Virus record (IMG/VR): IMGVR_UViG_3300014204_000114
Span: 32,001-96,000 of that record
Origin: a virus
Lineage: Duplodnaviria > Caudoviricetes
Length of the DNA stretch: 64,000 nucleotides
Reading direction: 5' to 3' (one strand)
Shown here: positions 364-62,359 of the stretch, one piece after another
How positions within the stretch are numbered: the first letter of the stretch is position 1
Layout: every line of letters begins with the position of its first letter
Translations under genes and position numbers: made by a program
Notes under the pieces: model-generated
What the model was told of the DNA's origin: nothing
Database searches by the model: none
What the model saw: only the letters and a program-made list of their open reading frames with translations

Positions 364-3300
364 CTATGCCTTTATATGCTTTCTCCCGCCATCTTTACCA
401 TTCATCCACATTACTACTGTGGCGTCTTTGGTAAGATCGGCAGAAAACTGCTTTCTTTCTCTGTTTTTAAGTCCATTAATAGCCATCTCTTTATCCGCAC
501 TCGAACTAGTCTTACTTTTTATTGTATCAAATTTCTTAGAAGTAGCAAAGTTGATCGTTCTCGAATACTCGGCCATGACTGCCGGGATCTTTGGTTCGGA
601 TGTAGTTTCGCTAACTAAAGCCGTGACTTTCTTATCAGTATTAACATTATAGACGTTTTGAGAAGCTGTAAACTCAGCTGAAGCTGAATTAGGTAAGTAA
701 ACTTCTGAAGGTCTCGCGGATTCGGTAGTGTAACCCGTCTTTATAGGATCGTTATATACCCCCTGCTGACGTTCTCCCCAACCACGAGAAGCTACTGAAG
801 TAGAAGCCAGTATTTGGGAGCTTACGTCGGCGCCTATTCTATAGCCGGATCCAAAGTCAGTCTGTTCCTTTCTGCTGTCTCCGGACATACCAGATTCGCC
901 AAGCCCTTCCATTATATTAACAGAATGACCTCTTCTTCTAGAAGCTCTTATTGCTCCCAGGTTTGAAGGCATGCCGCGCTTCGTTTTCTGAAAATCCTCT
1001 AAAGCCCACTTATATTGGGTCTCCGCGGATACTAAAAATTCCTTCCAACTTCTATGCTTCCAATAATTCTCTAAGGCTGATTCTTGCGGAAACTCATTCC
1101 AATCTATACCTCTTTCTTCCGCCATTACAGCCATAGCATCACGCTGCGCCATAAAGTTGCTTACTGCCTGTTTATAAAGAGTGTCGTCTGTTTTCCATCT
1201 AAAAGTTATCGGTTCTGCGTTAGGGTCTTCCATAGGATAATAGTTAATACTAGCATAAGGAAGATTCATCGTTTTAGCGTACCAGTTAGTCTGCAAGATA
1301 TGAGACATATAAGGCTTTTGGTTTTTCATCATGGTCTCATAACGGCCTTTCGTTAGAGACTTGATATCCATGACTTCATTTTCGAATACTACGTCGGCAT
1401 AACTCCTGACTCTTAAAATAGGATCTTCCACTAAGACTTCAGATTTTGCGCCTTTCTGTTCGAACCGTTTTTCTAATAGTCTATGATATGCAGTACCAAG
1501 CTCCATAGACGCTTTAGAATAAGGACTTTGCTCTTCTTCTTTCTCTCCTGTGATACCGGCTATTCTTCCGAAAGCGACTCCTTTCGCAGGATGCCCTACG
1601 GTAGAAGCACCTAACCATACGTTATATGGTCCCGGGTTATCATCCATTAGTATTTCTACAGAGTTGTATAATCCTCTATAACCAGAACCAAAGTCGGTCA
1701 TCTTTCTTCTTCTCTGAGAAGCGTAACCGTCATGCCTCAGAGCCTCTATAGTATTATAAGCATCATCTTTCGCGGAAATATATCCCGGCACAGTATTAGC
1801 TTGAGTGTTCCTTTGAATATCTTTTCTTGTATTGCCAGGGATCCCAGCGGCGTGGACATTTCTAGTTACTCTTTGTTTCCACGGAGTTCTAGAAGTAAAA
1901 ATGCGCCCGACTTTTCTTTCGGATTGGAATCTCTTGCCTTGAATGGTCCTCAGATCTTCTCCGCGCTGGACTTGGTTCAAAGCAGTACTTTGATAATAGT
2001 TCGACCTGAACGGATAACTTACATCTTTATACTTAGCCGATACATAAGAGAAGTTGTCGCCTTTTAGTATCCGGACATTCTCTCTATTAAAGCTCTGCCC
2101 GGATAAATTAGAGGGAAGATCGGTCGTTAATAGACCGGCATCTTCCGTCGTTCTTAAGCCGAGCTTGCCTTCTTCTCCGGCATACCCCATTTCTCTAAGT
2201 ATATGATCATTATTGGTTTCTATGCTAGGAGCACGATTAAAAATATTGTCGTATAGCGCAGTTACCGCAACAGCTCCAGCGACGCCAATAGCTAATCCCG
2301 ACGGCTTTATATACCCTTTGCTTAAAGTGGAAATATTTCCGGCAACACCACTAAAAAATCCAGAAACTGCAGATGTAGCTGTAGTTACTGTAGAAGAAGG
2401 AGATATTAAAGTCGGTGCTATATTTTTAGGAGCTGTTATAGCCGCCGCTGCTATTTTTTGCTTAGTAGCTGTATAAAAAGCCTGAGCGTCTGGAGGTAGT
2501 CCCGAAAAGTTCTTGTCGAAATACGATTCATATTGCCACGGGATTTTAGGTAATTCTTTTCTGGCTAGAACCTCATCTACTTTGGTCCCTGTTTTGTATA
2601 ATTCAGCTAAGAGCCATGCTCTTTTTTCGTCCTGAGAAAAACCTCCAGCCCGGGCGGTACTTAATAAGAATGGAAGAGCTTCCCTTGTATACCTAACGTC
2701 TATAGCCGGGTTATGAGCACCAGCTTCATATATAGCTCTTACGTCAGCAAGAGTTTTGATTTTAGAAGCGTTCGCTGCGGCGAGCATTGATTCGAGAGAC
2801 CACCCGCGCATTATTTTAGTATCGCCCTGTAGTAACTGAGCTATATGTAATTCTTCGTCTATTTGAGTCTTTAGGAATCCGAGCTCTTTAAGAGGAGAGA
2901 TTATGGACGCTTTTGCAAGTTTAGCAAGATCGAAGTATCTTTGTTGGGCTTTTGTTGTTGTTTTTTGATGGAACAGATTAATTATAGCAGGAAGAAGTTT
3001 AGCTCTTTCTTGGGATCTTGCCGCCTGAGATATTAAAGCGGGCTTATCGAACGACTCGATATTATGACCGACTATAACGGCATCCTGATCAAGCATTATC
3101 TTTGCCGCGTCGTCAGCAAACTCCAGCATCATCTTATCGATACTACTAAATGTCTTTAGAGCGCCGGTTTCTGCTTGATTCAACGCCAGACTAGCTTTTG
3201 AGCTTGCAGCTAGATACTTCCCCTGATCTATCTTATAAAATTTCCCTTTCCACTGTCTGTAGAACGGATTCTTTTGGTTTGTCTGTAGAATGCCCTCAGC

Positions 3301-3657
3301 TTCAGGGACCTCTTCGAGTCCTATAACATTTTTGATCGTAAATTCAGAAACATCCCCTTTTTCAACAAGATCCCAAGTAGCTTCCGGAGAGAGAGAATAA
3401 AGAGTTGTTTTGCCTTGATAGTGAAGACCTATCTGGATGACATCTACGTCTTTGGCGCCGGTTACGGCGTTTTTGCTGAATCTAGATGCGGACTTGAGGC
3501 TTTTTCTGCCTGTTGTGGAAGAGCCTAATTTTTCCTGATCCGGTAATCCCGTAGTTTCAACGTCAACAAATGCAACTTTACCCAGAGCTTGCTGAGAGTT
3601 AACAAGCTTGGATATAATGTCCGCGTCGGGCTTTCCGAATAAGTCTAAAAAGCTCAT
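364..3657 (-). CDS. Multidomain nuclease: N-terminal DEDDh 3'-5' exonuclease plus PD-(D/E)xK (RecB/Cas4-like) nuclease domain
   Basis: VAFVDVETTGL, VGHNIESFD and GAHNPAID (Exo I-III); LGTAYHRLLE, ADVV..MDIKS and LQTNWYA (PD-(D/E)xK with QxxxY). Confidence 0.8.
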   Translation of the reverse strand: MSFLDLFGKPDADIISKLVNSQQALGKVAFVDVETTGLPDQEKLGSSTTGRKSLKSASRFSKNAVTGAKDVDVIQIGLHYQGKTTLYSLSPEATWDLVEKGDVSEFTIKNVIGLEEVPEAEGILQTNQKNPFYRQWKGKFYKIDQGKYLAASSKASLALNQAETGALKTFSSIDKMMLEFADDAAKIMLDQDAVIVGHNIESFDKPALISQAARSQERAKLLPAIINLFHQKTTTKAQQRYFDLAKLAKASIISPLKELGFLKTQIDEELHIAQLLQGDTKIMRGWSLESMLAAANASKIKTLADVRAIYEAGAHNPAIDVRYTREALPFLLSTARAGGFSQDEKRAWLLAELYKTGTKVDEVLARKELPKIPWQYESYFDKNFSGLPPDAQAFYTATKQKIAAAAITAPKNIAPTLISPSSTVTTATSAVSGFFSGVAGNISTLSKGYIKPSGLAIGVAGAVAVTALYDNIFNRAPSIETNNDHILREMGYAGEEGKLGLRTTEDAGLLTTDLPSNLSGQSFNRENVRILKGDNFSYVSAKYKDVSYPFRSNYYQSTALNQVQRGEDLRTIQGKRFQSERKVGRIFTSRTPWKQRVTRNVHAAGIPGNTRKDIQRNTQANTVPGYISAKDDAYNTIEALRHDGYASQRRRKMTDFGSGYRGLYNSVEILMDDNPGPYNVWLGASTVGHPAKGVAFGRIAGITGEKEEEQSPYSKASMELGTAYHRLLEKRFEQKGAKSEVLVEDPILRVRSYADVVFENEVMDIKSLTKGRYETMMKNQKPYMSHILQTNWYAKTMNLPYASINYYPMEDPNAEPITFRWKTDDTLYKQAVSNFMAQRDAMAVMAEERGIDWNEFPQESALENYWKHRSWKEFLVSAETQYKWALEDFQKTKRGMPSNLGAIRASRRRGHSVNIMEGLGESGMSGDSRKEQTDFGSGYRIGADVSSQILASTSVASRGWGERQQGVYNDPIKTGYTTESARPSEVYLPNSASAEFTASQNVYNVNTDKKVTALVSETTSEPKIPAVMAEYSRTINFATSKKFDTIKSKTSSSADKEMAINGLKNRERKQFSADLTKDATVVMWMNGKDGGRKHIKA

Positions 3658-6603: not shown

Positions 6604-7473
6604 TTATCCCTCTAAAAATAATAGGTTATTTGATATAAATCCGGCTGCACCTTTGTGCCCGCCGCCTCCATAGAGTTTGGCTATTTCGCCACAGTGAATT
6701 TCTAGCTTAGTTGAATATAACGAAACTGTCCACTTTTTATCTTTGTTCATCTGGAAAGCTATCATTATGTCATAATCGGTTTCATTATAAATACTATCAA
6801 AGAGTTGTGAACCTCCGCCGCCATTGAGACAAATAGCTTTTAGGTTATGAAAGGTTGTCGGAAACGCTCCATATTTACATCTATTAGCGTTTTGCGTATT
6901 CGTATACCTTTCGATTGTTTCACCACTTTTGACAATATCCGAAAAAGCACTCGTTCTGCCTTTTCCGTCGTTAAATAATAACTCCCATATTGGAGAGTTG
7001 TATTTTAACCCTAATTCTCGCATTCCCATTTGGAAAGATTTGCAATTTGGGATATCTTTCCATTTCCAAATGTCCCATCGACCCAAATAATAAATAGCCA
7101 TCGGCATTTCTGCGCCGCCGTGAATATATTCCCAAGTTAATTCACAGCCAGCCTTATCGTTATTTAAAACCATGGCAAGCGAAGTAAGGGGTATAGTGTT
7201 TTCTTTTGCCGCTTTGATTGCGGTGTCATGATGGTCAACCCATATCAAGTCGCACACATTCGCCAATTTAATCATGCCGTTTATTGGCAAACTGAAATCA
7301 ACCATATAGACAAGTTCTTTTTGACCAGATGGTAACGGTTTTATATCATCCCAAGGAAAAATATCGCCGTAATTTATCCCGTAAAAGTCGCACGGTTTAC
7401 CCTGATTGTTTTGGTAAATTATTGCCGCGCTACAAATTCCGTCAAGGTCTGCATTATGGTAAAATACTTTCAT
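6604..7473 (-). CDS. DHH/DHHA1 family phosphoesterase (NrnB-like)
   Basis: YHNADLDG, VDFS, WVDHH, GGGGHKGAAGF motifs. Confidence 0.92.
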   Translation of the reverse strand: MKVFYHNADLDGICSAAIIYQNNQGKPCDFYGINYGDIFPWDDIKPLPSGQKELVYMVDFSLPINGMIKLANVCDLIWVDHHDTAIKAAKENTIPLTSLAMVLNNDKAGCELTWEYIHGGAEMPMAIYYLGRWDIWKWKDIPNCKSFQMGMRELGLKYNSPIWELLFNDGKGRTSAFSDIVKSGETIERYTNTQNANRCKYGAFPTTFHNLKAICLNGGGGSQLFDSIYNETDYDIMIAFQMNKDKKWTVSLYSTKLEIHCGEIAKLYGGGGHKGAAGFISNNLLFLEG

Positions 7474-15931: not shown

Positions 15932-16165
15932 TTACTTTTCTCCTAATAATGCTAAATAGACAGATCCTGTCAGAGAGTAGACTAAGGTTGCAATCCCGGC
16001 GGTTATTCCTATACAGCTAACGAATTGAATATGATCAGCTCCCAAAACCTCCACAACATATAATTCGTGAATACTGTAGAAACCAATACTACCAGCAAGA
16101 AGGAAAATGAAGTAAATAATAACCCGCGCCCACCAGCTAAAATATCTCGCATCTTCTAATACCAT
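15932..16165 (-). CDS. Small two-TM membrane protein
   Basis: AAGGAG SD; hydrophobic helices. Confidence 0.7.
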   Translation of the reverse strand: MVLEDARYFSWWARVIIYFIFLLAGSIGFYSIHELYVVEVLGADHIQFVSCIGITAGIATLVYSLTGSVYLALLGEK

Positions 16166-28411: not shown

Positions 28412-28489
28412 CGGGGTGTAGTTTAATAATGCAGAATACCGCCTCTGAGGGGCGGAGACTTGCCGGTTCAAATCCGGCTCCCCCGACCA
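28412..28489 (+). tRNA. Atypical tRNA: Pro-like acceptor (C1:G72, A73) with anticodon loop TC-TGA-GG
   Basis: Cloverleaf: D stem GTTT/GAAT, AC stem CCGCC/GGCGG, T arm GCCGG-TTCAAAT-CCGGC, encoded CCA; one acceptor mismatch and C33. Confidence 0.75.
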
Positions 28490-30233: not shown

Positions 30234-31474
30234 ACTACCCCACTACAAGTAGCGGGGCTTGCGGTTCCGGAAGGAGAAAGTTAGAGATGAGAGATTGGAC
30301 CACAATAGGCATGTTTATAGATGCCCTTCGGGCTATGTTAATAGCACCATTAAAATCAGCATTTGAAGTATAACTACATATTTCGCAAGAAAATAAGGAT
30401 TGAGACTTTCGATTATGCTTAGAAATGTTACCACATTTAGGACAAGTTCTGGAAGTATTAACAGGAGAGACTGCAATAACAGGAACTCCGAAGAGCTTGG
30501 CCTTATATTCAATAAAACTTCTAAGCTGATAGAAAGCCCACTTTCCAAACTTATCTCTTTGGGCTTTGCTAACCGTTTTACTGAAACCTTTAAGGTTCTC
30601 AAGAGCGATAGCTCTTTGAGTGTCTTTAGCTTTGGAGACAATTTTCTTGGAAATTACATGATTTATATTACGTTTAAAGTTAGACTCTTTTTTAGAGATC
30701 TTCTTAAGATGCTTTTTAGCAGATGTAGTTCCACAGGATTGAAGGTTCTTTCTAAGTTTAGAGTATCTGACTCTGGTATTTTCAACTTCTTGTCCGGAAA
30801 AGAATTCTCCGTCGGAGGTAACGGCTAAATTAACGATACCCATATCAATTCCAAGAATACCTTTGGAACTGATTGGAGTACCATCAGGAACCTCAATGCA
30901 CAAACACAAATAGAGTTCGTTATTATAAAGGATCATGTCTGCTTGACCCTTGATTATTCTTCTATGTAGATTAGCATACTCATAGCAAACAAGAGGAATT
31001 TTAAACCTCCCATCAAGGCTAAGGATACTGACCGTATCCATCCCTTTAAAAGAGAGAATACGTCCATCGTAAACAATAGCAGAATGGGGTTTAAAAACAT
31101 GCAAAGCGGCTCTGCTAGATTTAGCTCTATAAGATTCAGAAACTTTACCAATGGCTCTAACTGTAAGTTGAGCAGAAAGTTTAAAGTTTTCTCTAACATA
31201 TCTATAACAAAGATGATGTAAGTCAACATGTCCAAATTTCTTAACTTCGAAAGCTATCTTAGACACAAAATTACAAGCTTCGTTAAAGACTTCCATAGTC
31301 TTTATAAGAGAAGCTTTCTGCTCTTCGGTAGTGAGAAGCTTAACTTTCAATGTAAGTTTCATAATTTTAGTATAGCATAAAATAAGCTTATAGCAATACT
31401 TTGAAAAATAAATTGAATACTCTAACCGCGCTCCTCCCCGCCCCAAGGGGTGGGGTGTCCGCGCTGAGGTCTTT
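30230..31474 (-). mobile_element. IS200/IS605-family (IS1341-type, tnpB-only) element
   Basis: Right-end hairpin ending ...GGGGTAGTTTAT, left-end hairpin at 31428-31466, flanking TAM TTCAT on the minus strand. Confidence 0.8.
30235..31362 (-). CDS. tnpB: TnpB RNA-guided nuclease
   Basis: MKLTLKVKL start; RuvC GIDMG / ALENL / NADFNGA; CPKC..CEIC Zn finger. Confidence 0.93.
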   Translation of the reverse strand: MKLTLKVKLLTTEEQKASLIKTMEVFNEACNFVSKIAFEVKKFGHVDLHHLCYRYVRENFKLSAQLTVRAIGKVSESYRAKSSRAALHVFKPHSAIVYDGRILSFKGMDTVSILSLDGRFKIPLVCYEYANLHRRIIKGQADMILYNNELYLCLCIEVPDGTPISSKGILGIDMGIVNLAVTSDGEFFSGQEVENTRVRYSKLRKNLQSCGTTSAKKHLKKISKKESNFKRNINHVISKKIVSKAKDTQRAIALENLKGFSKTVSKAQRDKFGKWAFYQLRSFIEYKAKLFGVPVIAVSPVNTSRTCPKCGNISKHNRKSQSLFSCEICSYTSNADFNGAINIARRASINMPIVVQSLISNFLLPEPQAPLLVVG

Positions 31475-31753
31475 ATGAAATGCCCAAAAGGCAAATGCCT
31501 TAACAGATTATCAAAAGGGTTAGCTAAATGCGATCCTAAATACGATTACTATTATCCAGAGGATGCGAGTAATTGCATATTAGAGCCCGGAAAAGAATTT
31601 TTGACTCCCGAAGAAGCAAGAGTACTGAAAGTATTAAGAAAAGATGGCGTTCGTTCGTACTCTATAGCTTCTGACATACTAAAAATACCTTATGAAAAAG
31701 TAATAGAAATACATAATCGGATAAGATGCAAAGACTATTATTTAGTTGACTAA
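31475..31753 (+). CDS. Cys-rich/HTH-like protein, paralog of 29952-30233
   Basis: MKCPKGKC...YYYPED...IRCKDYYL. Confidence 0.7.
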   Translation: MKCPKGKCLNRLSKGLAKCDPKYDYYYPEDASNCILEPGKEFLTPEEARVLKVLRKDGVRSYSIASDILKIPYEKVIEIHNRIRCKDYYLVD

Positions 31754-31754
31754 C

Positions 31755-32485
31755 AAGAACTGAATCCAATTCATTATTCACTGACATAAAGTCATTGAAC
31801 TTAGTTCAATTAATGAAAAACATAGGCCAAAAAAAACTTTTTACTCCCTTTATCCTTATTATAAAAACAAAACCTTAATACTAAATACAATGTATTCTAT
31901 AATTATGTATTATATACTTAAGGCTAAAGTATAAATTTTATGCGAGTATATTTAAGTTATAATATATTCCGAGTATAAAATTTATAACAATGATTCAACA
32001 CTTTTTAAAAATGCTAAAAACCAAAATGAATTGCATTCAGCTATGAAAAAACATAAATCGAATTACAAAAAGTAATAAAAGCTCAAAATCACTAGCCTCT
32101 AAAAAGAGCCTTAAAAAATGAATGAGCGTTCATTCAGTTTTAGGAGGTTAACGCTCAAGTGGCGCTGGCCTTTTTCGCGGGTGATGCCCCGCTAACCCCC
32201 GTTAAAAGTACAAAACATTCGGATTCTTAAAAAAGAGTCCGAAGTATGTAGTAACAATACCCCTAATTTCGACCTTATTACCCTCTAGAATCGATTTTTA
32301 AATCAATACTAAGGGTAAGGTGGCTTCGCGCTCTTAATCGTCGCTTAAAACCGTTATTAACTCGAAGGGATATTCCGCGAGTAAATAAATAATATTGACT
32401 TAAAACTCATTTCTTAAATAAATTTAACTTAATTAATTTAAAAATTATAAAAATGAATCTTATTCATTTCTATTAAAAGGAGAAC
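31755..32485. other. Long AT-rich non-coding region with palindromes and short repeats (origin- or regulatory-like)
   Basis: No ORF; AGTATA(A)ATTT x3, TGAATGAGCGTTCATTCA palindrome, inverted copy of CCTTAGTATTGA. Confidence 0.5.
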
Positions 32486-39983: not shown

Positions 39984-40754
39984 ATGAGGCGTGATATGAA
40001 AGAAAAGTTCAGAAATCATTGGGATTTTTATGGCAGTGGCGAGGAGGCTTGGATATCCAAGAAGTTTCTTCTTAAAATGTTAATTGCTGACAAGAAGCAA
40101 TGGAACAAGTTAAAGAAGGAAGGTAAGTGGGAGAATGTTGACCTGTCTTGGATAAGCATGTTCAGCTATATGAACACTCCGTTTTTATACTATGACAAAC
40201 TCTTCAAGATTGACTGTTGGGCAGATTTATCAGGGGCAGATTTAGAAAACGTTAGCTTTGAAGGATTAGACTTATATGGAGTTGACTTCAGAAAATGTAA
40301 AATCAGAAACACTAACTTTTCTGCCGCTAACTTAAGTGCTTGCAGGTTTTCCAATGAAAAGGGGCTTCTAACTAAAGAAGAATTTCTCAGCCAATTTGAA
40401 AAATTAAAGAACGGTTGGCTTGTTTACAAAGTCATAAAAGACGATGAGCGAGACGATAGAGACAGGGGCTGGAGAGAAGATCACAAGGAATATAAAAAAC
40501 ATTACAAGTGGGAAATTAAACAGAATTCAATTATTACTGGAAAGGTTGATCACAATAGATTTGCATATAAAGATAATGGTATTAATTTCGGCACGCTTAA
40601 ATATTGCAATGAATACTATAGACATTACTCTAAAGAAGATAAAGGAAACCTTTGGGCCTGCGAGCTTCCATTTGATGCCGATATATGTGTACCATATGCC
40701 TCCAGCGGAAACGCAAGAACAGACAAATTGAAGCTAATTACAGCCTTATCATAG
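39984..40754 (+). CDS. Pentapeptide-repeat protein
   Basis: ADLSG ADLEN VSFEG LDLYG VDFRK...ANLSA. Confidence 0.8.
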   Translation: MRRDMKEKFRNHWDFYGSGEEAWISKKFLLKMLIADKKQWNKLKKEGKWENVDLSWISMFSYMNTPFLYYDKLFKIDCWADLSGADLENVSFEGLDLYGVDFRKCKIRNTNFSAANLSACRFSNEKGLLTKEEFLSQFEKLKNGWLVYKVIKDDERDDRDRGWREDHKEYKKHYKWEIKQNSIITGKVDHNRFAYKDNGINFGTLKYCNEYYRHYSKEDKGNLWACELPFDADICVPYASSGNARTDKLKLITALS

Positions 40755-44561: not shown

Positions 44562-45539
44562 ATGGAAAGGTTTAAGACATATATTGGATTAGATAAGCTG
44601 GGATACCCGTCTGGATATAAATCAATATTCGACAGGGAAACAGGCATTCATATAAGAGAAGTTGGAGAAGACGGGTTATGCCCCGCGCCTGAAATTGCGG
44701 ATATTGAAATTTCGACTATCTGCTCCAGAGGATGCAAATTCTGTTATAAGGACAATAAATCCAAAGGCGAGAATATGTCTCTCGAAACATTTAAAGATGT
44801 TTTGAGGAAATTCAATCTTGATATCCTAACTCAAATTGCATTTGGAATTGGAGATATAAACGCAAATCCGGATATATGGAAAATCCTGGCTTATACAAGG
44901 TCTAAAGGAATCATTCCGAATATAACGGTTAATCCGGATATAACTCAAAGTGACGCAAATAAATTAGCCAGCCTATGCGGGGCTGTAGCAGTATCTTATT
45001 ACGGCTTAGCAGAGACATTAGAAGCTGTATGTAAGTTGCACGACTCGGGATTGAAACAGGTAAATATCCACGCTTTAGTATCGGAAGAAACTAAAAGTGA
45101 CGTTGAGCTTTTATTCGAAAGGTCTAAATATGTACCGGAGTTAAACGCAATTGTATTACTTGCTTTAAAGCCTAAAGGTCGCGGCGTAGCATTCACCCCT
45201 CTAAAAGGATTCGGATGGTATAAAAGAAACTTCGAAGGAGCTAAAAAGTATAATATGGGTCTTGGGATGGATACATGCTCGGCATGCAGATTTAAAGCTG
45301 AAGTAGACGACCCTTCATTGGATAGCATAATCGAAACATGCGAAAGCACTTTAGCTTCTATTTATATAGATGTTAAAGGAGTAGCTTATCCATGCTCATT
45401 TAGCGTAGGAAAAATACAAGGGCAGAATCTTCTAAATGAACGGACTGATGTAAGCGATATCTGGAGATCCGATATCTTCAAAGCGTTCAGGAGAGAATTG
45501 AGACTAACAAGAGGCAAATGCCCTATTTACGATATATAA
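44562..45539 (+). CDS. Radical SAM protein with SPASM/Twitch-like C-terminus
   Basis: CSRGCKFCY (CX3CX2C), QIAFGIGD, TCES...YPCSF...CPIY. Confidence 0.92.
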   Translation: MERFKTYIGLDKLGYPSGYKSIFDRETGIHIREVGEDGLCPAPEIADIEISTICSRGCKFCYKDNKSKGENMSLETFKDVLRKFNLDILTQIAFGIGDINANPDIWKILAYTRSKGIIPNITVNPDITQSDANKLASLCGAVAVSYYGLAETLEAVCKLHDSGLKQVNIHALVSEETKSDVELLFERSKYVPELNAIVLLALKPKGRGVAFTPLKGFGWYKRNFEGAKKYNMGLGMDTCSACRFKAEVDDPSLDSIIETCESTLASIYIDVKGVAYPCSFSVGKIQGQNLLNERTDVSDIWRSDIFKAFRRELRLTRGKCPIYDI

Positions 45540-45548
45540 GGAATTAAA

Positions 45549-45884
45549 GTGAAAAAGATAATCAAAAAGACAGAAGACACCGCAACGGGAGCTATTTATT
45601 TAGATCCTATTGATTTGAGTCATTTAGATAATGACGGAGATTTTGATAATTACGACGACGCATACGACAGAGGGTTAAGGGCAGGGGAGCATTACCATAA
45701 AAAATTCATAAAAGAAGAGGTCGTACCTTTACTTAAAGAGACTAGAGACAGGCTTGAATCCATCCAGAAAGACTCAGGATTGGCTTCTTTAGAAAACAGT
45801 TACTGCGGGGAGTATGAATCAGAAGAACTTATAAAGAAAATAACTGATTTTATTGATAAGCTCGAAGCTCAAACTAAGGGATAA
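45549..45884 (+). CDS. Hypothetical protein
   Basis: ORF with SD. Confidence 0.7.
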   Translation: MKKIIKKTEDTATGAIYLDPIDLSHLDNDGDFDNYDDAYDRGLRAGEHYHKKFIKEEVVPLLKETRDRLESIQKDSGLASLENSYCGEYESEELIKKITDFIDKLEAQTKG

Positions 45885-45886
45885 GT

Positions 45887-46087
45887 ATGAGAACATCTAT
45901 TCAATGCTTACATTATTGTGATTTAAAAGAAGGCGACAGATTTATCTGCGTAGCTGAAGCTGAGGATCCTGCCCAGATATATTATACTTGGAAAGACGAT
46001 AGGTGGAATTTGCATGCACGATCATTACTAACAGGCCAAAACCATGATTTTAAACCTGATAGAAAAGTAGTAAAGGTGAGGATATGA
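45887..46087 (+). CDS. Hypothetical protein
   Basis: ORF in the operon. Confidence 0.6.
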   Translation: MRTSIQCLHYCDLKEGDRFICVAEAEDPAQIYYTWKDDRWNLHARSLLTGQNHDFKPDRKVVKVRI

Positions 46088-46980
46088 ATAAGATTAAAAT
46101 ACTAGATCCATTGGCAATGTGGCTGGATATGGGATTTGCCACGAAAATGACAGAAAGCTCATTAAGGCATTATGTTTTAAAAGGGGTGATGCGGCCTAAC
46201 GATCTTGTCATATTAGAAATTCCCTATCTTCGATCTGACGAAAGAACAGGAACCGCAAAAGCATATAATAAAACCGATTTAGAAAACACGCGGTATTATT
46301 CCATAACGGAGCAAATAGAAAGAAGCAAAAAATACCCTTCGATATACTTGTGCGTAGTAATAAGAGAAAAGAAAGGTATTTGGGAATTCATGCTGGTAGA
46401 CAACCAAGGACGTGATTCTTGTGGGAAACTATGTATTATTACTGCAGACGAAGAATGTTTTGATTATGTATGTAATGTTGGGGCAAAAGAACACAAACTC
46501 GAAATGGAACCTGGTCAAATTGTGGACTTAGCCAACACATATTATGGCTGCATAGATACAGTTTGGCTGACAGGTTATGGTTATTCTAGTGAACATAACG
46601 AAAGAGGGTGGAAGGGAATTTTATTAAAGCGCGATGGAGAGTACAGAGATACTAGCATACAGATAGAATGGGAGAAATATAAACGCCTTGGCCGTTCGGG
46701 CGGCGAGTGCGATTACAGAGAAAATACTCAATTACTTAGGACAATATGCGAAAAAGATTTCTTAGGAAACTTAACTCAGGATATTATTAACAGACTTAAA
46801 AAGCACAATGACAAAATTGTTCAGCTTTATGTCGATACCGTCGTCAAGAAAGTGATAAAAAAGCCGGAAATCTATTGCCCGGGACCATACATAAGCGATG
46901 AAGAGAAACGATGGAATAGATTTATGGCAAATAATCCAGATGCATTTGCGTGGGATAATATTAAGGGATGCCAACCATGA
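46084..46980 (+). CDS. Hypothetical protein
   Basis: 298 aa, ATGA overlap. Confidence 0.75.
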   Translation: MNKIKILDPLAMWLDMGFATKMTESSLRHYVLKGVMRPNDLVILEIPYLRSDERTGTAKAYNKTDLENTRYYSITEQIERSKKYPSIYLCVVIREKKGIWEFMLVDNQGRDSCGKLCIITADEECFDYVCNVGAKEHKLEMEPGQIVDLANTYYGCIDTVWLTGYGYSSEHNERGWKGILLKRDGEYRDTSIQIEWEKYKRLGRSGGECDYRENTQLLRTICEKDFLGNLTQDIINRLKKHNDKIVQLYVDTVVKKVIKKPEIYCPGPYISDEEKRWNRFMANNPDAFAWDNIKGCQP

Positions 46981-47387
46981 AAAAGATAAACAATAACATA
47001 TCTACAAAAGAACCCTCTCCTGAAGTTTTAACTAAGGAAAGCAGGCAAGAAAGAGAAGCACGTTTTAATGCCAGAATGAAGAAATTCGACAAAGCTCTTA
47101 AAACAAGAATTGCTAAAGACTCGCATCAGAAGAAATATACCACATTTAGGAATAGATCATTATCTGAATTAACATATGAAATAAATTCAGAAATGATCTG
47201 GCGAATGAAACAAGATGGATATCAATGCGACGGTAGTCAATTCGTGACGGAAATTAATTTTTGTCCATATACGTCACATCTACTGTATATATTTTTTGAT
47301 ATAGACTCTTGTCGGTATCTCGGCATGAGTCAGACGTGCCGACAAGCATATGTGCTTGAAGAGGAAATTAATGAAAAAAATAATTAA
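46968..47387 (+). CDS. Hypothetical protein
   Basis: ORF in the operon. Confidence 0.7.
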   Translation: MPTMKKINNNISTKEPSPEVLTKESRQEREARFNARMKKFDKALKTRIAKDSHQKKYTTFRNRSLSELTYEINSEMIWRMKQDGYQCDGSQFVTEINFCPYTSHLLYIFFDIDSCRYLGMSQTCRQAYVLEEEINEKNN

Positions 47388-47685
47388 AAAACGCATCTAT
47401 AAATTTATCACTACGCAGCCTATAGATAGAACTTATATAGCTTTGGCAGAAAGCGAAGATGATCTTAAGGGCAAGTATAATAACGGAGAGTTTGACGAGA
47501 CTGAAGAGACCGAAGGAGATCCTACGGAGATGCTTTTGGTTGATGTGGACGATTCTGAACCGGAAGAAATGATGCAAATCACTGCATATATAGATTGTCC
47601 TGTAGATCCTTTAAAATGCTCGCATCGTTTAGAAGGTGAAGGCTGCGGTAAATGTCCTAAAGGAGCAAAGTGGGTTGAAATATGA
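47371..47685 (+). CDS. Hypothetical protein with C-terminal Cys cluster
   Basis: GAGGA SD before MKKIIKK; CPVDPLKC...CGKC. Confidence 0.7.
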   Translation: MKKIIKKRIYKFITTQPIDRTYIALAESEDDLKGKYNNGEFDETEETEGDPTEMLLVDVDDSEPEEMMQITAYIDCPVDPLKCSHRLEGEGCGKCPKGAKWVEI

Positions 47686-47966
47686 TGAAGAAAGATAAAA
47701 AATTAAAAAAGAAATTTCTTGAAATAGTGCAAACATATGCCGAGTATGGTATAGACGGGCTTAGAATAAGAATAACGCAAAAGGATTTTGATTACATAGA
47801 CAAGCATATATCCAAGCTTATTAAAATTTTCAATCTAGACCATGACGAAATCCAATCATTCTTCACTGCCCATAATAACTATAAGCACGTTATGGAATTT
47901 ATTGAAGCTATGGAGGATTTATTAGCGACGACAGATCTTTCAGGAGAAGAAAATGATAAAAATTAG
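47682..47966 (+). CDS. Hypothetical protein
   Basis: ATGA overlap. Confidence 0.65.
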   Translation: MMKKDKKLKKKFLEIVQTYAEYGIDGLRIRITQKDFDYIDKHISKLIKIFNLDHDEIQSFFTAHNNYKHVMEFIEAMEDLLATTDLSGEENDKN

Positions 47967-48480
47967 AATGGGTTTTGTTAGTAATAGCTCAAGCTCATCA
48001 TTTTTAATCGCTCTACCAAAAGAGCCGAAGGATACAGCGGAGCTTAAAGAGATGCTGGGATACGGAACAGTCCCAGAGGAATGGCTTCAGTGCATTCTTC
48101 ATAAGATTAAAATGGGAGGGGATGGCTTTTACGAAGAACGTAGAAAGCTTACTAGGGAAGAACTTCTCGCGGAGTGGTTAGAAAACTCAAGTGACACAAA
48201 ATTTTACCATGAATTATTGGGTAAGTTACGGGGACCAAAGCAAAGAAAGATTTCTAAGACAAACTACGCTCTAGCGGCAGCAGTGGCAGACGCTATATAT
48301 GAAAGAATAATAAAAGATTTTGACGAGGATACAAAAGACATGTTCCTGTGTGCCTTAAGATTCGGCTATCAAGGGGATGGCTCCCCTGCTGTCGAGGGAG
48401 AGATAGAAAAAAGTGTCGTCCTCGGAGGAATAAAACGCTTAACGACTAAACTCAATCCTCCCGGAGGAAATCATGGTTAA
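47953..48480 (+). CDS. SNSSSSS-motif family protein 1
   Basis: MIKIRMGFVSNSSSSSFLI. Confidence 0.8.
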   Translation: MIKIRMGFVSNSSSSSFLIALPKEPKDTAELKEMLGYGTVPEEWLQCILHKIKMGGDGFYEERRKLTREELLAEWLENSSDTKFYHELLGKLRGPKQRKISKTNYALAAAVADAIYERIIKDFDEDTKDMFLCALRFGYQGDGSPAVEGEIEKSVVLGGIKRLTTKLNPPGGNHG

Positions 48481-49039
48481 AATAAGAACAGGGTTTGTAT
48501 CAAATAGTTCGTCGAGTTCGTTCCTGGTATTTTTTCCAAGAAAGCCTAATAATGTAATCCAGCTTAGGGATATGTTGTTTTCCAGATATGATATAGACCA
48601 TGACTTCAGATTTAAAACAGGATTCGATGATGACCTTTCGATGTCTCTAATGGATGTCGCTGAGATAGTGTTTGATGATATGGAAAACCAAAAGCCGAAT
48701 TCTGCAAAAGTGAAGAAAGATTGGATCAAAAACAAGACATGGGATCTAGACAAGAAAGTACTCGGAGCGGCAGTCCATTGGAAGAGACTTCAAACAGAAG
48801 AGGATGGATCTGTATCCGCAAAAGAATTAGGAAGGCTTGAACGAGAATCAGAGAAAGAGGCCGAATATGATATGAAGCATACTATAGAATACTACCGCAA
48901 GGAGACAATAAAAGAAGAGGGACATTGTTTTATTTACGAATTTGAGTATGCGGATGATGATGGTACGTGGCAGGATGGCATATTAAGACATGGGAATATA
49001 TTCAGGAACTTAAGACATATTAAGGATTACAACCAATAA
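48473..49039 (+). CDS. SNSSSSS-motif family protein 2
   Basis: MVKIRTGFVSNSSSSSFLV. Confidence 0.8.
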   Translation: MVKIRTGFVSNSSSSSFLVFFPRKPNNVIQLRDMLFSRYDIDHDFRFKTGFDDDLSMSLMDVAEIVFDDMENQKPNSAKVKKDWIKNKTWDLDKKVLGAAVHWKRLQTEEDGSVSAKELGRLERESEKEAEYDMKHTIEYYRKETIKEEGHCFIYEFEYADDDGTWQDGILRHGNIFRNLRHIKDYNQ

Positions 49040-49061
49040 GAAAATCCTTCAGGAGGCAAAA

Positions 49062-49424
49062 ATGGTTAAGATAAGAATGGGACTTGTAAGTAATTCCTCA
49101 AGTTCAAGCTTTATAGTCACGTTCCCTCATGATCCTAAGAATGAGGAAGACGTATTCGATATGATGTTCCCCGGAAAAGATAGGGAGGATCATTACACTA
49201 TATATGATTACGTGACTCATCTTGGAGTAATTTCTCAGCAAGTATGGCAAGATATTCAGGAACATCGTATAAAAAATCGTAAGCCTAATTTTAAATATAA
49301 ACTTGCAGAAGGAGAGACCAAGTACTATTTCCATTATTCAGACAATGATGGAGAATTAGGAACAATTATGGAGCATGGAGATATATTCTCTAATCTAAAA
49401 CATGAACGAGAGAATCATCATTAG
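49062..49424 (+). CDS. SNSSSSS-motif family protein 3
   Basis: MVKIRMGLVSNSSSSSFIV. Confidence 0.8.
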   Translation: MVKIRMGLVSNSSSSSFIVTFPHDPKNEEDVFDMMFPGKDREDHYTIYDYVTHLGVISQQVWQDIQEHRIKNRKPNFKYKLAEGETKYYFHYSDNDGELGTIMEHGDIFSNLKHERENHH

Positions 49425-49432
49425 GAGAAAAT

Positions 49433-49729
49433 ATGAAAATTGGTAAATATATAATGTATTCGAAGGTGGACTTTGCAAGAGTCAAAGGCGAATACATCAA
49501 TAAATATCTAGGAATCGAGGAATTCACTTCAATGACGGATATGTTTGCTTTTATATCCGAATTGCTATCTGAATATACTAAACAAGCTCCATGTGATAGC
49601 GGGGCGGTTAAAAATATCGAAAAGCTAAAAAATAAATTAACGGACCTTACAAATATGGACGACGAATTCTATGTCACCAATAGTTCGTTATATGAAATAT
49701 TTATTAAGCGGATTAAAGTTGGAGAATAA
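49433..49729 (+). CDS. Hypothetical protein
   Basis: AGGAG SD. Confidence 0.65.
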   Translation: MKIGKYIMYSKVDFARVKGEYINKYLGIEEFTSMTDMFAFISELLSEYTKQAPCDSGAVKNIEKLKNKLTDLTNMDDEFYVTNSSLYEIFIKRIKVGE

Positions 49730-49900
49730 GTATGGGAATAGATAAAGAAGAGTGGATTTATTATTTAAATGAGATTCGTCTTTCGGCAGAAACAGTCAGA
49801 GCAAATTGGAACCATATGAGCGCCGGAGACATTAACGACGAGATGGAAAATATAAAAACAAAAACTGAAATATTATTAGGCGATATTAAAGAGGACTAAA

Positions 49901-50470
49901 ATGGTTAAAATAAGATTAGGATTTGTATCAAATAGCTCATCGTCATCATTTTTAGTGGCTTTCCCGAAAAAGCCTAATAATGCAGACGAATTAAAAGCCA
50001 TGTTATTTACTAAATATCAATGTGATATCGAAAATAGCCAGAGAATGGATGATGTTTCCAGTTATTTATTCGATAAGATCTGTGAATTTCTAGATATAAA
50101 TAGAAAGAAAAAAGACTTAAGAAAATTTGTTATAAATGAATGGGAAAAACATCCGGATCCTGATATCTGGTGCGAGAAGAAAAAAGAAGTGGATCAGGAG
50201 TGGGAGCACGAACACGGTAAAAGATTCGTATGTGATTGTAATGATCCAGAATCGCGAAAAGAATTAGATAAAATACACAAAGAGACCGATAGGCGCGCTA
50301 AGATCTGGTCGGATTGCGATGTGGAAGAATTTGAAGAAAATACCAGAGGATGGTTCGTGTGTACATTTGAGTTAGGAAATGCCACTTTTGATACTGCTTC
50401 ATTGTGTGAAGAATTAGAACATAGCGGAGTGTTCAATCACTTGCCACATATAATCCATAATAATCATTAG
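49901..50470 (+). CDS. SNSSSSS-motif family protein 4
   Basis: MVKIRLGFVSNSSSSSFLV. Confidence 0.8.
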   Translation: MVKIRLGFVSNSSSSSFLVAFPKKPNNADELKAMLFTKYQCDIENSQRMDDVSSYLFDKICEFLDINRKKKDLRKFVINEWEKHPDPDIWCEKKKEVDQEWEHEHGKRFVCDCNDPESRKELDKIHKETDRRAKIWSDCDVEEFEENTRGWFVCTFELGNATFDTASLCEELEHSGVFNHLPHIIHNNH

Positions 50471-53534: not shown

Positions 53535-55562
53535 ATGTCGATGTATCCTTTTACGTTATTCTTTGAGAAAACATTAAGCGATGAAGATTTCGCAAGCATT
53601 AGTTCACATTTAGAAAGTCTTGACCTTCCTGTTATGCCGTTGATGCTAGAAGAGGGATTAAGCGGTTATGTCATTAATATAACTGACGCCGCGAAAGAAG
53701 AAAAATTAAAAAGAATACTTACTAGTATGGGAGGCTTTGCTAAGTTGTCAGGGATGGCTTACGATGGCCTAATGAGGCTACCTTATGCTTTTGACGCGTT
53801 GATTAAAAGTCAGCTTACGACTCCTGCAGTTCCTGCTATGGAAGACGCGTCCGAAACAAGAAGAAGTTCAGAAGGATGTAACGATGCTCCATGCAGAGGA
53901 TGCGACGCAGAAGAGTGCGAGAATAGAGACGAAGATTACGATGAATATTATGATAATGATAGAGAAAACGAAACCCATAATCACGACGATGATTGCATAT
54001 GTAGATTCTGTGACGAGCCGAATTGCGAAGATAGAGATGAAGAGTTTTTGTGTGGGGGGACTTTAGAAGAATGTGGAGAATGTGATAAAGATTGCCAGTA
54101 CAGGCAAAATGTATTGGCGACTCCTGCCCATCTAACTCCCGAAACCAGAGCTGAAGTAATAGAAGCATTACAAATAGAAATCCCAATAGACGATACTACG
54201 AGAACAGTAAGGGATGGATATTCCGATTTTGCGACAAAGAGCTATAAAAGATATTATAATCCATCCTTAGAATGCGTGAGCCCCACAGGTAATATAGGAT
54301 TATTGCCTTATAGGATGGCTTCCAGATCTCATACGAAAGACGGGCTTAATTTATATTCGAAAGCTATAGCTAAATTGTCCGACGGTGACGGGCCAATGCT
54401 CGTATTTCTTACGAAGTATAGCGATAACGGAGAGGCTCATTGGGAACAGTTGAAGATTATAACAGAAGCTGTCTTAGATGTTATAGAGCCTGCAAAATTA
54501 AACAGATTTAAAACAATATATATATCGGAAACTCATAATTCTGCTCCTATCACTCCGATGGCTATAGACGATAATCTGTATATATGGCTGTGGGCCGATA
54601 TAAAATCCTGTTCCAGCGCAGAGAGGCTAAAATCTCCCGTATATGGGATGACATTAAGAGATTGCGGGATGACAGACCACTTGTCGATATACGATCATAA
54701 TTTGTATGATTATGTGAATTATAGCGACCGATCCGAGGCAATTGCAGGCGTGTCCGGGAATAACATTTATACATTTTTTGACTTGATGCATCCGGACCCC
54801 GAAGGGATTAAAAAGCTTGAATGGAGAAAATCGTATTACGAATTATGGAAAAAGCTTATTCTTGATATGTCCAGCAATATGATGTTAACTCCGGAAGAGA
54901 TATCAAATAAAGCCCAAAAGCAGTTTATCTCTTCTTATAAGAAGTCTATGATCGATTCTATAAACAATTTGAAGAGTGAGATAAGCAGCATATCGCAAAT
55001 AGTCCAGTCTTATGAACGGGATTTTAAAGAGAAGTATTCCGAGATGAAGCAAAAAGAGGATATGCTTTATACTATCGAGGCTAATAAAGACGAAGACAAA
55101 CTGGATTTGAGAGCCCTTGAAATTATAGATATGATAAAAAAGTCTAAGCTTACCAAAAGTGTAGAGTTTGATAAAAGTCAATATCTAATAGTAAATACGA
55201 AAAACATTTTCTGCACCGATCCAAGACAAGGCAACGTCTATGAGCTTGGCGAATTTAAGATTAAGATTCCGTTCAACGGAAAAACTTCAAGCGATATAAG
55301 AATACTGAATCAAACAAGGACGGTGGATGGTTATTGGCACAATCATAATGCCCCGCATGTTGATAATAACGGGAAGCCTTGTTGGGGTTCCGTTGCTATA
55401 GATATGACTAAGGTTTTAACAGAAAAGAAATTCTACGAAGTTTATATGATGTGCCTGGCCTTTTTAGAGACTGTAAACCCGGCTGATTCGGCTGGAGCAT
55501 ACATAGAAAGATGGCCTAAAGTCGAAAGTAAAACTGAAGAAAAAACAGCTGAAGTCGCTTAA
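53535..55562 (+). CDS. Multidomain protein: Cys/acidic repeats, coiled coil, C-terminal prokaryotic E2 (UBC-like) domain
   Basis: APHVDNNGKPCWGS...FLETVNPADSAG; context next to E1/JAB/Ubl. Confidence 0.72.
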   Translation: MSMYPFTLFFEKTLSDEDFASISSHLESLDLPVMPLMLEEGLSGYVINITDAAKEEKLKRILTSMGGFAKLSGMAYDGLMRLPYAFDALIKSQLTTPAVPAMEDASETRRSSEGCNDAPCRGCDAEECENRDEDYDEYYDNDRENETHNHDDDCICRFCDEPNCEDRDEEFLCGGTLEECGECDKDCQYRQNVLATPAHLTPETRAEVIEALQIEIPIDDTTRTVRDGYSDFATKSYKRYYNPSLECVSPTGNIGLLPYRMASRSHTKDGLNLYSKAIAKLSDGDGPMLVFLTKYSDNGEAHWEQLKIITEAVLDVIEPAKLNRFKTIYISETHNSAPITPMAIDDNLYIWLWADIKSCSSAERLKSPVYGMTLRDCGMTDHLSIYDHNLYDYVNYSDRSEAIAGVSGNNIYTFFDLMHPDPEGIKKLEWRKSYYELWKKLILDMSSNMMLTPEEISNKAQKQFISSYKKSMIDSINNLKSEISSISQIVQSYERDFKEKYSEMKQKEDMLYTIEANKDEDKLDLRALEIIDMIKKSKLTKSVEFDKSQYLIVNTKNIFCTDPRQGNVYELGEFKIKIPFNGKTSSDIRILNQTRTVDGYWHNHNAPHVDNNGKPCWGSVAIDMTKVLTEKKFYEVYMMCLAFLETVNPADSAGAYIERWPKVESKTEEKTAEVA

Positions 55563-60760: not shown

Positions 60761-62359
60761 ATGTATCTTAATCTTGAAACTCTCGTAAACGAACTAGGAA
60801 GAACGTGGGGATTTTACGTAAAAATATCAAGTGAAAGTTTCGGCACTACTATCAAAACTAGAAATAAACTTCATGACAAAGGTATCATATCAACTGATTT
60901 CTATCATAGCGAAGGAGATTACGGGCTTTTGATGGACGCCGAGAATTTGATTAAGCTTGAGACTCTTTATGGAAGAGCGGAAGTGACAGGACTCGTATGT
61001 CCTCATTATGAGAATATGATAGAAGTCACTTTAAGCTCTCCTGTCCTTGATGCTATATTGCCCGAACAAACAGAATTAATAGTAGATTTACTAACGGCAG
61101 ATATCCTACCTAAAAAGAAAAAGCCTAAGAAGAAAACCGAAGATGATATAACAGGAACTGCCTCTTCAGAGTTAGAGTTTTTACTAAAAGATGAAGAAGT
61201 TGTGTCTCTCCTAAAGAATATAACGAAATCGCTAAAGCTTAATGAGTTTTTAGTAAGCAGAACTATCATAGACTGTTCTATCGAAGACAGATTTACAGTC
61301 CTCATAGGATCTTATCAGGATGATTCCCCAATGGGTTATAATAAATTCTCGTGCGGATCTTTTGATAAGATAAAAAGCCCTTCCAGTATGTATCTGTATC
61401 TTGATACGGGATACGATAGAATTTACGATGTTGTATTCAAGGACTACGCGGGAGTTCCATTCGCAGGTTCTCATAGAGAAATCCACGCGTTATACCTGTT
61501 TTGGAACATATTTGATCAGGTAGAGCGTATTGATAGTAGAAACGAAGCTAAGCTGAATGATTTTAGAAAGAAATACATCACTGAAATACTTAAAAGATTC
61601 GATTTATACTTGACTGACCAAAAAGAGTATGCTAAGAAATATGAGAATAATGGTAAGTCTCTGAAGATGTCAGAATCGGCAGTAAAAGATATTTATAATA
61701 AGGCGGGGAAGACCGAACTTAAGAAAGCTGAATTAATAGTTAAATATGGAACTCAGATTATAGATAAAATTTATTTACAGTTACACAAATACGAACAAAT
61801 GGTGATAGCCGCAGGCGAAAAGGTAAAAATGTTCAGAGAAAATGATAGTGAAGAAAAATTTACACAGAGATATAGGAAAGAATTAGAATTAGTTAATAAG
61901 AATTCAAAAGTACTCAATGCTGCTATTTCTGAAAATCAATTAATAATTCATACGGATATGTTATATTGTGAAAATCCGCAGACTCATAAAGTTCACGAAA
62001 TAGGCAAATTTATCATAATGTTCGAGTTATCGTTAATGACCGGAGGAGATAACGAAGGTCTAGTAAAGTGGATTAATGTAACTCATAAAATAAAGGGATT
62101 TAGCAATCAGTTTATGAACGCTCCTCATATATTTAATGATGGACATGCATGTCTCGGATCAATAGCGGGAACATTTTCTAAATTATTAAATAATCATGAG
62201 ATAGCATCTGCTGTTGATTTAGCAATCCAATTTGTGGAAAGCGTAAATCCGGTGGATGCGGCAGGATCATTTATAGGGAATTGGCCGATAGTAGAAACGG
62301 AGAAGAAGAATGAAGAAACTAGGGAAGAGACGGAAGCAGAACTCGCAGAAACAGCGTAA
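60761..62359 (+). CDS. Coiled-coil protein with C-terminal prokaryotic E2-like domain (paralog of 53535-55562)
   Basis: APHIFNDGHACLGS...FVESVNPVDAAG. Confidence 0.72.
   Translation: MYLNLETLVNELGRTWGFYVKISSESFGTTIKTRNKLHDKGIISTDFYHSEGDYGLLMDAENLIKLETLYGRAEVTGLVCPHYENMIEVTLSSPVLDAILPEQTELIVDLLTADILPKKKKPKKKTEDDITGTASSELEFLLKDEEVVSLLKNITKSLKLNEFLVSRTIIDCSIEDRFTVLIGSYQDDSPMGYNKFSCGSFDKIKSPSSMYLYLDTGYDRIYDVVFKDYAGVPFAGSHREIHALYLFWNIFDQVERIDSRNEAKLNDFRKKYITEILKRFDLYLTDQKEYAKKYENNGKSLKMSESAVKDIYNKAGKTELKKAELIVKYGTQIIDKIYLQLHKYEQMVIAAGEKVKMFRENDSEEKFTQRYRKELELVNKNSKVLNAAISENQLIIHTDMLYCENPQTHKVHEIGKFIIMFELSLMTGGDNEGLVKWINVTHKIKGFSNQFMNAPHIFNDGHACLGSIAGTFSKLLNNHEIASAVDLAIQFVESVNPVDAAGSFIGNWPIVETEKKNEETREETEAELAETA

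Follow-up and report, generated by a model that had tools for sequence, protein, structure and literature searches.

Why should several proteins of one phage begin with almost the same serine-rich peptide, and what links them to an enzyme of the radical S-adenosylmethionine (SAM) kind encoded upstream on the same strand? The question is raised by a locus at 44.5-50.5 kb of a stretch of 64,000 nucleotides (nt), referred to here as the window, that covers positions 32,001 to 96,000 of IMG/VR record IMGVR_UViG_3300014204_000114 (Duplodnaviria; Caudoviricetes). The source phage genome (187,794 bp, 99% complete according to CheckV) contains in total four copies of the shared N-terminal peptide, called the tag below, and one copy of the enzyme gene. 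The linkage of tag and enzyme is exclusive, bidirectional and strand-consistent, the tag is strictly N-terminal, and the protein bodies that follow it are hypervariable. Functional coupling of the enzyme with the tag family is well supported, and we consider it reasonably probable that the two form a protein-modification system in which the enzyme is a maturase and the tagged proteins are its substrates.

A sequence-only reading of the window had described four open reading frames (ORFs) with a common N-terminus, Ser codons that vary between the copies, a C-terminal motif shared by three of them, and a radical SAM gene 2.4 kb upstream on the same strand, and each of these observations holds. 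The four genes, all on the + strand (Table 1), begin with M-(I/V)-K-I-R-x-G-(F/L)-V-S-N-S-S-S-S-S-F, and when G-(F/L)-V-S-N-S-S-S-S-S-F is searched as a degenerate DNA pattern, there are exactly 4 matches in the window, all on the + strand and at the 5′ ends of tagged ORFs, as against 0 in 100 shuffles. AGY and TCN codons for Ser are mixed among the four copies. In a set of 390 non-redundant tagged proteins, 381 have the tag from residue 2 onward and the other 9 from residue 3; its K, R, G, F, V, S, N, S and S are each conserved to at least 98%, with S-N-S-S as the most invariant part (389-390 of 390). At each Ser position of the tag, AGY and TCN codons are both used in comparable numbers, which places selection on the peptide. 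Separately, the window carries a tRNA-Ser gene with anticodon TGA (28412-28489, + strand), and TCA is among the commonest Ser codons of the tags.

Behind the tag, there is little that the proteins share. Their length ranges from 18 to 390 amino acids (aa), with a median of 132 aa, and when 376 bodies were compared by BLAST after removal of the first 20 residues, they fell into 108 groups with no BLAST links between them. One of 117 diverse body representatives has a Pfam match (DUF4325), and the tagged proteins of the window have none in Pfam or NCBIfam. Querying phages by tblastn with a tagged protein gave no match, as the tag is masked by the low-complexity filter. The bodies are acidic (median isoelectric point 4.6, versus 6.8 for neighbouring ORFs). 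The window is atypical in that its four bodies are true paralogs within the largest body group; a profile of these four proteins, run on 1.8 billion representatives, retrieves 2,608 clusters (50% identity) with E no higher than 1e-3. Among 80 members of this body family, K3, R5, N11, S12, S13 and S15 never vary, and at the C-terminal end a block, Y.F.YSDNDG...LEHG.IF..L.H....H, is conserved. This C-terminal motif, in which Y, D, E, H, F and H are nearly invariant, is a trait of the body subfamily, and it is recognizable as (E/x)H(G/S)..F..L.H....(H/Q) in three of the four window proteins. A resemblance of its Y-S-D-N-D-G segment to motif C of family B DNA polymerases (Y-x-D-T-D-G) is weak (E 1.9) and was rejected as chance.

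AlphaFold predicts a small alpha/beta body for each of two window paralogs, of 188 aa (predicted local distance difference test score, pLDDT, 83.7) and 120 aa (pLDDT 85.5). In both models, residues 1-13 form a low-confidence free arm and the first strand begins with residue 14; in the 188-aa paralog this strand comprises residues 14-21. A Foldseek search of the PDB with both models returned nothing meaningful (E above 0.3); with VIA-align, a Z of 6.6 came from the helical insert alone and Z did not exceed 3.0 for the 120-aa core, and matches in the ESM Atlas are viral hypothetical proteins only. Conceivably, the tag could be an intrinsic functional motif, such as a Ser/Asn-rich loop that binds a ligand or phosphate, while the enzyme has its role at another point of the pathway, such as making the ligand. 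The confident placement of S14-F17 in strand 1 is consistent with such a role, and the Asp/Glu/His-rich C-terminal motif of the window's body subfamily could form a site. We nevertheless hold this to be improbable, as more than 100 unrelated bodies have only the tag in common, a catalytic loop that lacks conserved partner residues is unlikely, and no enzyme is matched in fold or family. Because these bodies share nothing but the tag, self-processing of the tagged proteins, which the earlier reading had also considered, is unlikely as well.

The protein encoded upstream is a member of the radical SAM superfamily according to Pfam Radical_SAM (PF04055; 41.5 bits, cut-off 29.5), exceeds the cut-off for the Pfam SPASM domain (PF13186; 25.1 bits, cut-off 21.5), and matches phrog_7293 (E 1.7e-49). 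Seven Cys are invariant among 27 enzyme sequences, namely the three of the CX3CX2C motif (C54/C58/C61, 27 of 27) and C239, C260, C278 and C320, and the SPASM signature CX9-15GX4C is conserved as C260-x12-G273-x4-C278. A fifth auxiliary Cys occurs in 18 of the 27 sequences, though not in the protein of the window. The earlier description as a SPASM enzyme stands at the level of the Pfam domain, but the four invariant auxiliary Cys of the 27 sequences fall short of the full SPASM set of seven Cys, which includes CX2CX5CX3C. As just four Cys beyond CX3CX2C are invariant, the window enzyme probably has one auxiliary cluster and is twitch-like instead of full SPASM. The best matches among solved profiles, both weak, are the twitch domain of BtrN (E 1e-4) and SkfB (E 9e-4). 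Among curated or solved proteins, the enzyme's closest relatives are twitch enzymes and maturases of peptides or proteins. The cluster motif has only about 45 residues before it.

Linkage of tag and enzyme in phages and bacteria

The association of tag and enzyme was followed in two sets of loci, 58 fetched with the tag and 80 from IMG/VR fetched with the enzyme. In the first set, tblastn with the window enzyme finds a full-length homologue (30-43% identity) within 10 kb in 37 of 58 loci, usually 0.5-6 kb upstream of the tagged genes and on the same strand. When the ORFs of 59 loci are clustered, the enzyme is present in 38 and the next most frequent cluster in 13; no third conserved component and no conserved protease or exporter gene is seen nearby. 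Among nine records that lack the enzyme within 10 kb, four carry it elsewhere and five are fragments (3-20% complete). In the second set, 69 of 80 loci contain between 1 and 13 tagged ORFs, all of them on the strand of the enzyme and none opposite. Ten of the remaining 11 records were searched, and seven of these carry canonical or variant tags: in six, a record-wide pattern locates F-V-S-N-S-S-S farther off or with variant upstream residues, which the strict tag pattern had missed, and in the seventh (L136) the variant F-V-A-N was seen only on reading the locus. The last three are one complete 357-kb genome without a recognizable tag and two small fragments.

Named phages show the same pairing. 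Of the complete Straboviridae genomes, those of T4, RB69, RB49 and KVP40 contain neither partner, and that of KP15 encodes the enzyme (KP15_135) and two tagged genes approximately 20 kb away (KP15_102 and a copy at 66.5-67.0 kb). Vibrio phage D479 has the enzyme with five tagged genes. The tag pattern occurs 111 times in 185,579 prokaryotic species genomes. Ten loci confirmed in prokaryotic assemblies, mostly contigs of metagenome-assembled genomes (MAGs), with one 178-kb contig from the assembly of an isolate, contain arrays of tags, in many cases together with the enzyme, and seem to derive from phages. A 178,077-bp contig of the Flagellimonas marina assembly (L146) has two tagged genes and the enzyme, spaced as in T4-like phages of the KP15/RB16 type, and is probably a phage genome within a bacterial assembly. 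A class-level genome search around one MAG with a tagged gene, from a small-genome class, gave just weak generic radical SAM matches. The co-occurrence across phage genomes that the sequence-only reading had proposed as a check is borne out in both directions, and as it extends to complete genomes in which the genes lie 20 kb apart, it points to functional coupling.

Beyond hundreds of large phages, the enzyme-tag pair is also seen in bacterial immune operons. A tblastn search of plasmids with the enzyme yields homologues in Agrobacterium, Rhizobium and Rhodobacter, and the plasmid neighbourhoods encode, together with the enzyme, a STAND NTPase of 883 aa (SMEK_N and NACHT domains; PADLOC match to Avs2, E 8e-27) and a 131-aa protein that starts with M-K-I-K-L-D-F-V-S-N-S-S-S-T-S-F. 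The tag variant of the bacterial operon is MKIKLDFVSNSSSTSF. This three-part operon is found in Agrobacterium, Rhodobacter, Klebsiella aerogenes and Proteus, with a tagged protein of 131-133 aa, and in K. aerogenes and Proteus mirabilis it resides within mobile islands. With hhalign, the alignment of bacterial with phage enzymes runs from end to end (probability 100, E 8e-55). For the small proteins, hhalign aligns just 19 tag residues, and this limitation of the bacterial-phage alignment to the tag argues further against the tag as an intrinsic part of a functional body; a likeness of the C-terminal body motifs noticed by eye was rejected on the same alignment. The STAND protein does not contain the tag motif. 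Between the STAND NTPase and the tagged protein, two of the loci (L162:7231-7605, L161:7213-7578) encode a second conserved small acidic protein of 121-125 aa, untagged and without a family, which makes the bacterial operon one of four genes.

These operons have the same three kinds of parts as the KpAvs2 operon of Klebsiella pneumoniae, which consists of Avs2, the radical SAM protein Avap1 and Avap2 (Bechon et al. 2024, PMC11564622), a likeness at the level of architecture. Avap2 binds the STAND sensor and was assigned to DUF6375 (PF19902) by HHpred (PMC11564622). An HMMER search with DUF6375, at E up to 10, came back empty for the genome of the window, for KP15 and D479 and for two plasmids, a comparison to be read alongside the HHpred basis of the Avap2 assignment.

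It could also be that the tag is a signal that works independently of the enzyme, for capsid targeting, export, degradation, amyloid-like assembly or autoproteolysis, and that the linkage is historical. The internal proteins of T4, which combine unrelated bodies with a common short N-terminal targeting peptide, provide a precedent, and a G/N/S-rich tag with flanking hydrophobic residues looks aggregation-prone. However, the linkage persists across phages whose enzymes are only 30-45% identical, and it persists in bacterial chromosomes and plasmids, where no capsid exists. Self-cleavage would need conserved residues in the body, of which there are none, and the absence of the motif from the STAND protein is unlike the situation in amyloid-signalling pairs. 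Overall, a signal of this kind seems very improbable.

Recognition and possible modification of the tag

Variation of the tag is informative as to how it may be read. Three genomes have tag variants of their own, M-K-K-R-x-G, M-K-S-R-N-F/Y-F and M-K-x-R-Q-S-F-V-A-N, each of which is common to all tags of its genome, including those followed by dissimilar sequence. A genome-variant tag is also found on a Cys-rich body type that bears the standard tag in other genomes. Variant tags of the same genome are identical at only 32-45 of 51 nt. Genome-wide variants despite such divergent DNA indicate that the tag evolves in concert within a genome, at the level of the protein, as expected if one genome-specific reader recognizes it. 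Agreement within loci at tag positions 1 and 3 is not reached in any of 500 shuffles, although common descent confounds this comparison.

In the reading that we favour, the enzyme would recognize the N-terminal tag on the four downstream proteins. The free N-terminal arm would enter the enzyme, where the 5′-deoxyadenosyl radical would alter a residue inside the tag, most likely in the invariant F-V-S-N-S-S core. The K-I-R-x-G part, on this account, likely varies with the enzyme lineage, whereas F-V-S-N-S-S is likely the reaction site. The tag would then be a portable handle that brings early phage proteins, mostly acidic and otherwise unrelated, under the control of a single maturase. Where the earlier reading spoke of a maturase with a family of substrate proteins, the coupling is upheld by the bidirectional co-occurrence, of which maturase and substrates is the most economical account; binding of the tag by the enzyme, its modification and the chemistry involved are all three points that we infer.

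Two candidate chemistries can be put forward. One is an aromatic-to-C-beta cyclophane crosslink on F-V-S, for which triceptides offer a precedent and with which the F-V-A variant would also be compatible. The other is hydrogen abstraction from, or oxidation of, a Ser, as performed by anSME and BtrN dehydrogenases; here the F-V-A variant speaks against a reaction at the first Ser, but not at a later one. Formylglycine formation as in sulfatases, which had been offered as an example, does not suit the tag, which does not fit the sulfatase motif and in one lineage has Ala in place of its first Ser.

A different possibility is that the tag is for docking only, tethering adaptor or regulator proteins to the enzyme while remaining chemically unchanged, and that the variable bodies bring the real substrate, which might be a host protein, nucleic acid or small molecule. 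Docking would predict the same data on co-occurrence, strand and covariation, the diverse bodies do resemble an adaptor array, and the small accessory protein of KpAvs2 physically binds its STAND sensor (PMC11564622). On the other hand, the conserved-peptide partners of known SPASM/twitch maturases are substrates, the most invariant residues are the small and polar S-N-S-S, as is more usual where a reaction takes place than in an epitope for binding, and no third conserved component accompanies the pair. We therefore give docking a minor but appreciable chance.

Several observations count against modification of the tag by the enzyme. Every curated NCBIfam model for radical SAM enzymes or maturases scores far under its cut-off, so that homology yields no chemistry. 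The segment from S14 to F17 is modelled, together with hydrophobic residues, as the first strand of the body, and its conservation could in part be structural. One IMG/VR genome (L109; 356,681 bp, 100% complete) has an enzyme homologue at 36% identity and no recognizable F-V-S-N-S-S-S tag anywhere; it may rely on a different tag or a different substrate. In some phages, enzyme and tagged genes are 20 kb apart. Finally, Avap1 is needed against phage T2 and dispensable against SECphi18 (PMC11564622), and if the KpAvs2 operon is homologous, the partner protein can act without the enzyme.

Literature searches found no published description of this phage system, and it is probably an undescribed system for the chemical modification of whole proteins. 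Its role in the phage is probably host takeover or counter-defence. More tentatively, and with low probability, a fast-evolving arsenal of small acidic proteins whose N-terminal arm bears a covalent modification, for example a strained cyclophane or a reactive carbonyl, could be effectors of counter-defence or takeover, and the pair in the Avs2-like operons either a captured bait or regulator or the evolutionary source of the phage system; if so, a “RiPP-like” maturation pathway at the protein level (RiPPs being peptides that the ribosome makes and that are modified after translation) would be central to the phage-host arms race. Since the same pair occurs in STAND/Avs2-like operons, a solved chemistry could explain both the phage system and the defence accessory. 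The system has thousands of members, given 2,608 clusters at 50% identity for the window's body type alone, and modification of the tag, if it occurs, would provide a function for unannotated genes of the well-known culturable phages KP15, RB16 and Lw1. Protein engineering might also make use of a short, portable tag that one enzyme reads.

The locus and its surroundings

The locus is a dense run of + strand genes with frequent overlaps (Table 1). The six small ORFs between the enzyme and the first tagged gene have no significant Pfam or PHROG family, and ORF clustering across loci identifies no conserved partner among them. Both phrog_7397, which the tagged proteins match, and phrog_7293 are annotated in PHROG as “unknown function”. 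No terminator-like site is present on the + strand in 43.0-51.5 kb, and a scan for promoters and terminators gave counts that are not above those of shuffled sequence.

Table 1. Coordinates of the enzyme gene, the tagged genes and the ORFs between them (positions in the window)
Feature	Position	Strand	Remarks
Radical SAM enzyme, 325 aa	44562..45539	+	Pfam Radical_SAM and SPASM; phrog_7293
Six small ORFs	45549..47966	+	Between enzyme and first tagged gene; tightly packed or overlapping; untagged; without family
Tagged protein 1, 175 aa	47953..48480	+	Tag codons 1-17 at 47953-48003; C-terminal motif degenerate; phrog_7397, E 2.2e-9, residues 2-37 only
Tagged protein 2, 188 aa	48473..49039	+	Tag at 48473-48523; start overlaps preceding gene by 8 nt; phrog_7397, E 1.5e-17
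Tagged protein 3, 120 aa	49062..49424	+	Tag at 49062-49112, with Leu instead of Phe at tag position 8; minimal body without helical insert; phrog_7397, E 1e-18
Two small ORFs, 98 and 55 aa	49433..49899	+	Untagged; flanked by tagged genes 3 and 4
Tagged protein 4, 189 aa	49901..50470	+	Tag at 49901-49951; phrog_7397, E 2.1e-10

Elsewhere in the window, coding strand and GC skew switch at about position 16000, with genes on the - strand before and on the + strand after approximately 16 kb. On the - strand at 30235-31494, antisense to the surrounding + genes, lies an element of the IS200/IS605 family encoding a 419-aa TnpB-type protein (Pfam OrfB_IS605, a Cas12f1-like TNB domain, phrog_506 transposase). 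The early region encodes a 256-aa pentapeptide-repeat protein at 39984-40754 (+; Pfam Pentapeptide, E 1.9e-9); the pentapeptide-repeat fold is known for DNA mimicry, and an anti-restriction or gyrase-protecting product is possible. Two - strand genes precede the switch, one for a DHH phosphoesterase (6604-7473; phrog_4771, E 1e-42) and one for a 1,097-aa protein (364-3657) without a Pfam family, residues 706-840 of which match phrog_1706, “CRISPR/Cas system associated”. Most large ORFs of the window, among them 53535-55562 and 60761-62359, have no Pfam or PHROG family.

Relation to known radical SAM systems

Several classes of radical SAM enzymes and their partners resemble the present pair in part. 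From glycyl-radical proteins and their activases it differs in that the motif is N-terminal rather than C-terminal and the enzyme has a SPASM/twitch domain; moreover, the R-x-G-F of the tag is one residue shorter than R-V-x-G-(Y/F). A closer parallel is found in anSME/AtsB and BtrN, which belong to the radical SAM enzymes, have auxiliary clusters and target protein Ser/Cys or oxidize an alcohol, and of the solved structures it is the BtrN twitch domain that matches the enzyme's C-terminal domain best (E 1e-4). Unlike the anSME system, however, there are four instead of seven auxiliary Cys, the tag has no (C/S)-x-P-x-R motif, also in the wider form (C/S)-x-P/A-x-R, the bodies have no sulfatase fold or family, and no anSME model is among the NCBIfam matches.

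The FxSxx-COOH/FxsB pair is a radical SAM-SPASM system of conflict systems (PMC7159879; 10.64898/2026.10.19.760177) and, like the pair described here, combines a conserved F-x-S-x-x peptide (F-V-S-N-S in the tag) with immune-type surroundings that include STAND or TIR proteins. The Fxs motif is at the C-terminus of a peptide, whereas the tag is at the N-terminus of whole proteins, and there is no FxsB model among NCBIfam matches to the enzyme at E up to 0.01. Unlike operons of the KpAvs2 type, the phage version has no STAND protein and contains arrays of tagged proteins.

A further comparison is with the RiPP maturases SkfB, SuiB/StrB and CteB and the triceptide synthases XncB and HtkB (PMC11499958), which serve several precursors with a conserved leader. 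As in those systems, a radical SAM enzyme with an auxiliary Fe-S domain lies beside one to many genes, the products of which have a short conserved peptide in common and differ in the rest of their sequence. Triceptide synthases install an aromatic-to-C-beta crosslink on aromatic-X-X motifs (PMC11499958), to which F-V-S, or F-V-A in one lineage, conforms. Unlike RiPP systems, the enzyme has no N-terminal domain the size of a RiPP recognition element, and no conserved protease or exporter gene is near. RiPP precursors are short and consist of a leader that is removed and a core, whereas the tagged partners are whole proteins (72-390 aa) with a median of 132 aa and bodies that are folded in the AlphaFold models; in addition, the conserved tag, unlike a RiPP leader, is probably the reaction site itself and is probably not cut off. 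If the tag is modified, radical SAM maturation would reach from short peptides to families of folded phage proteins.

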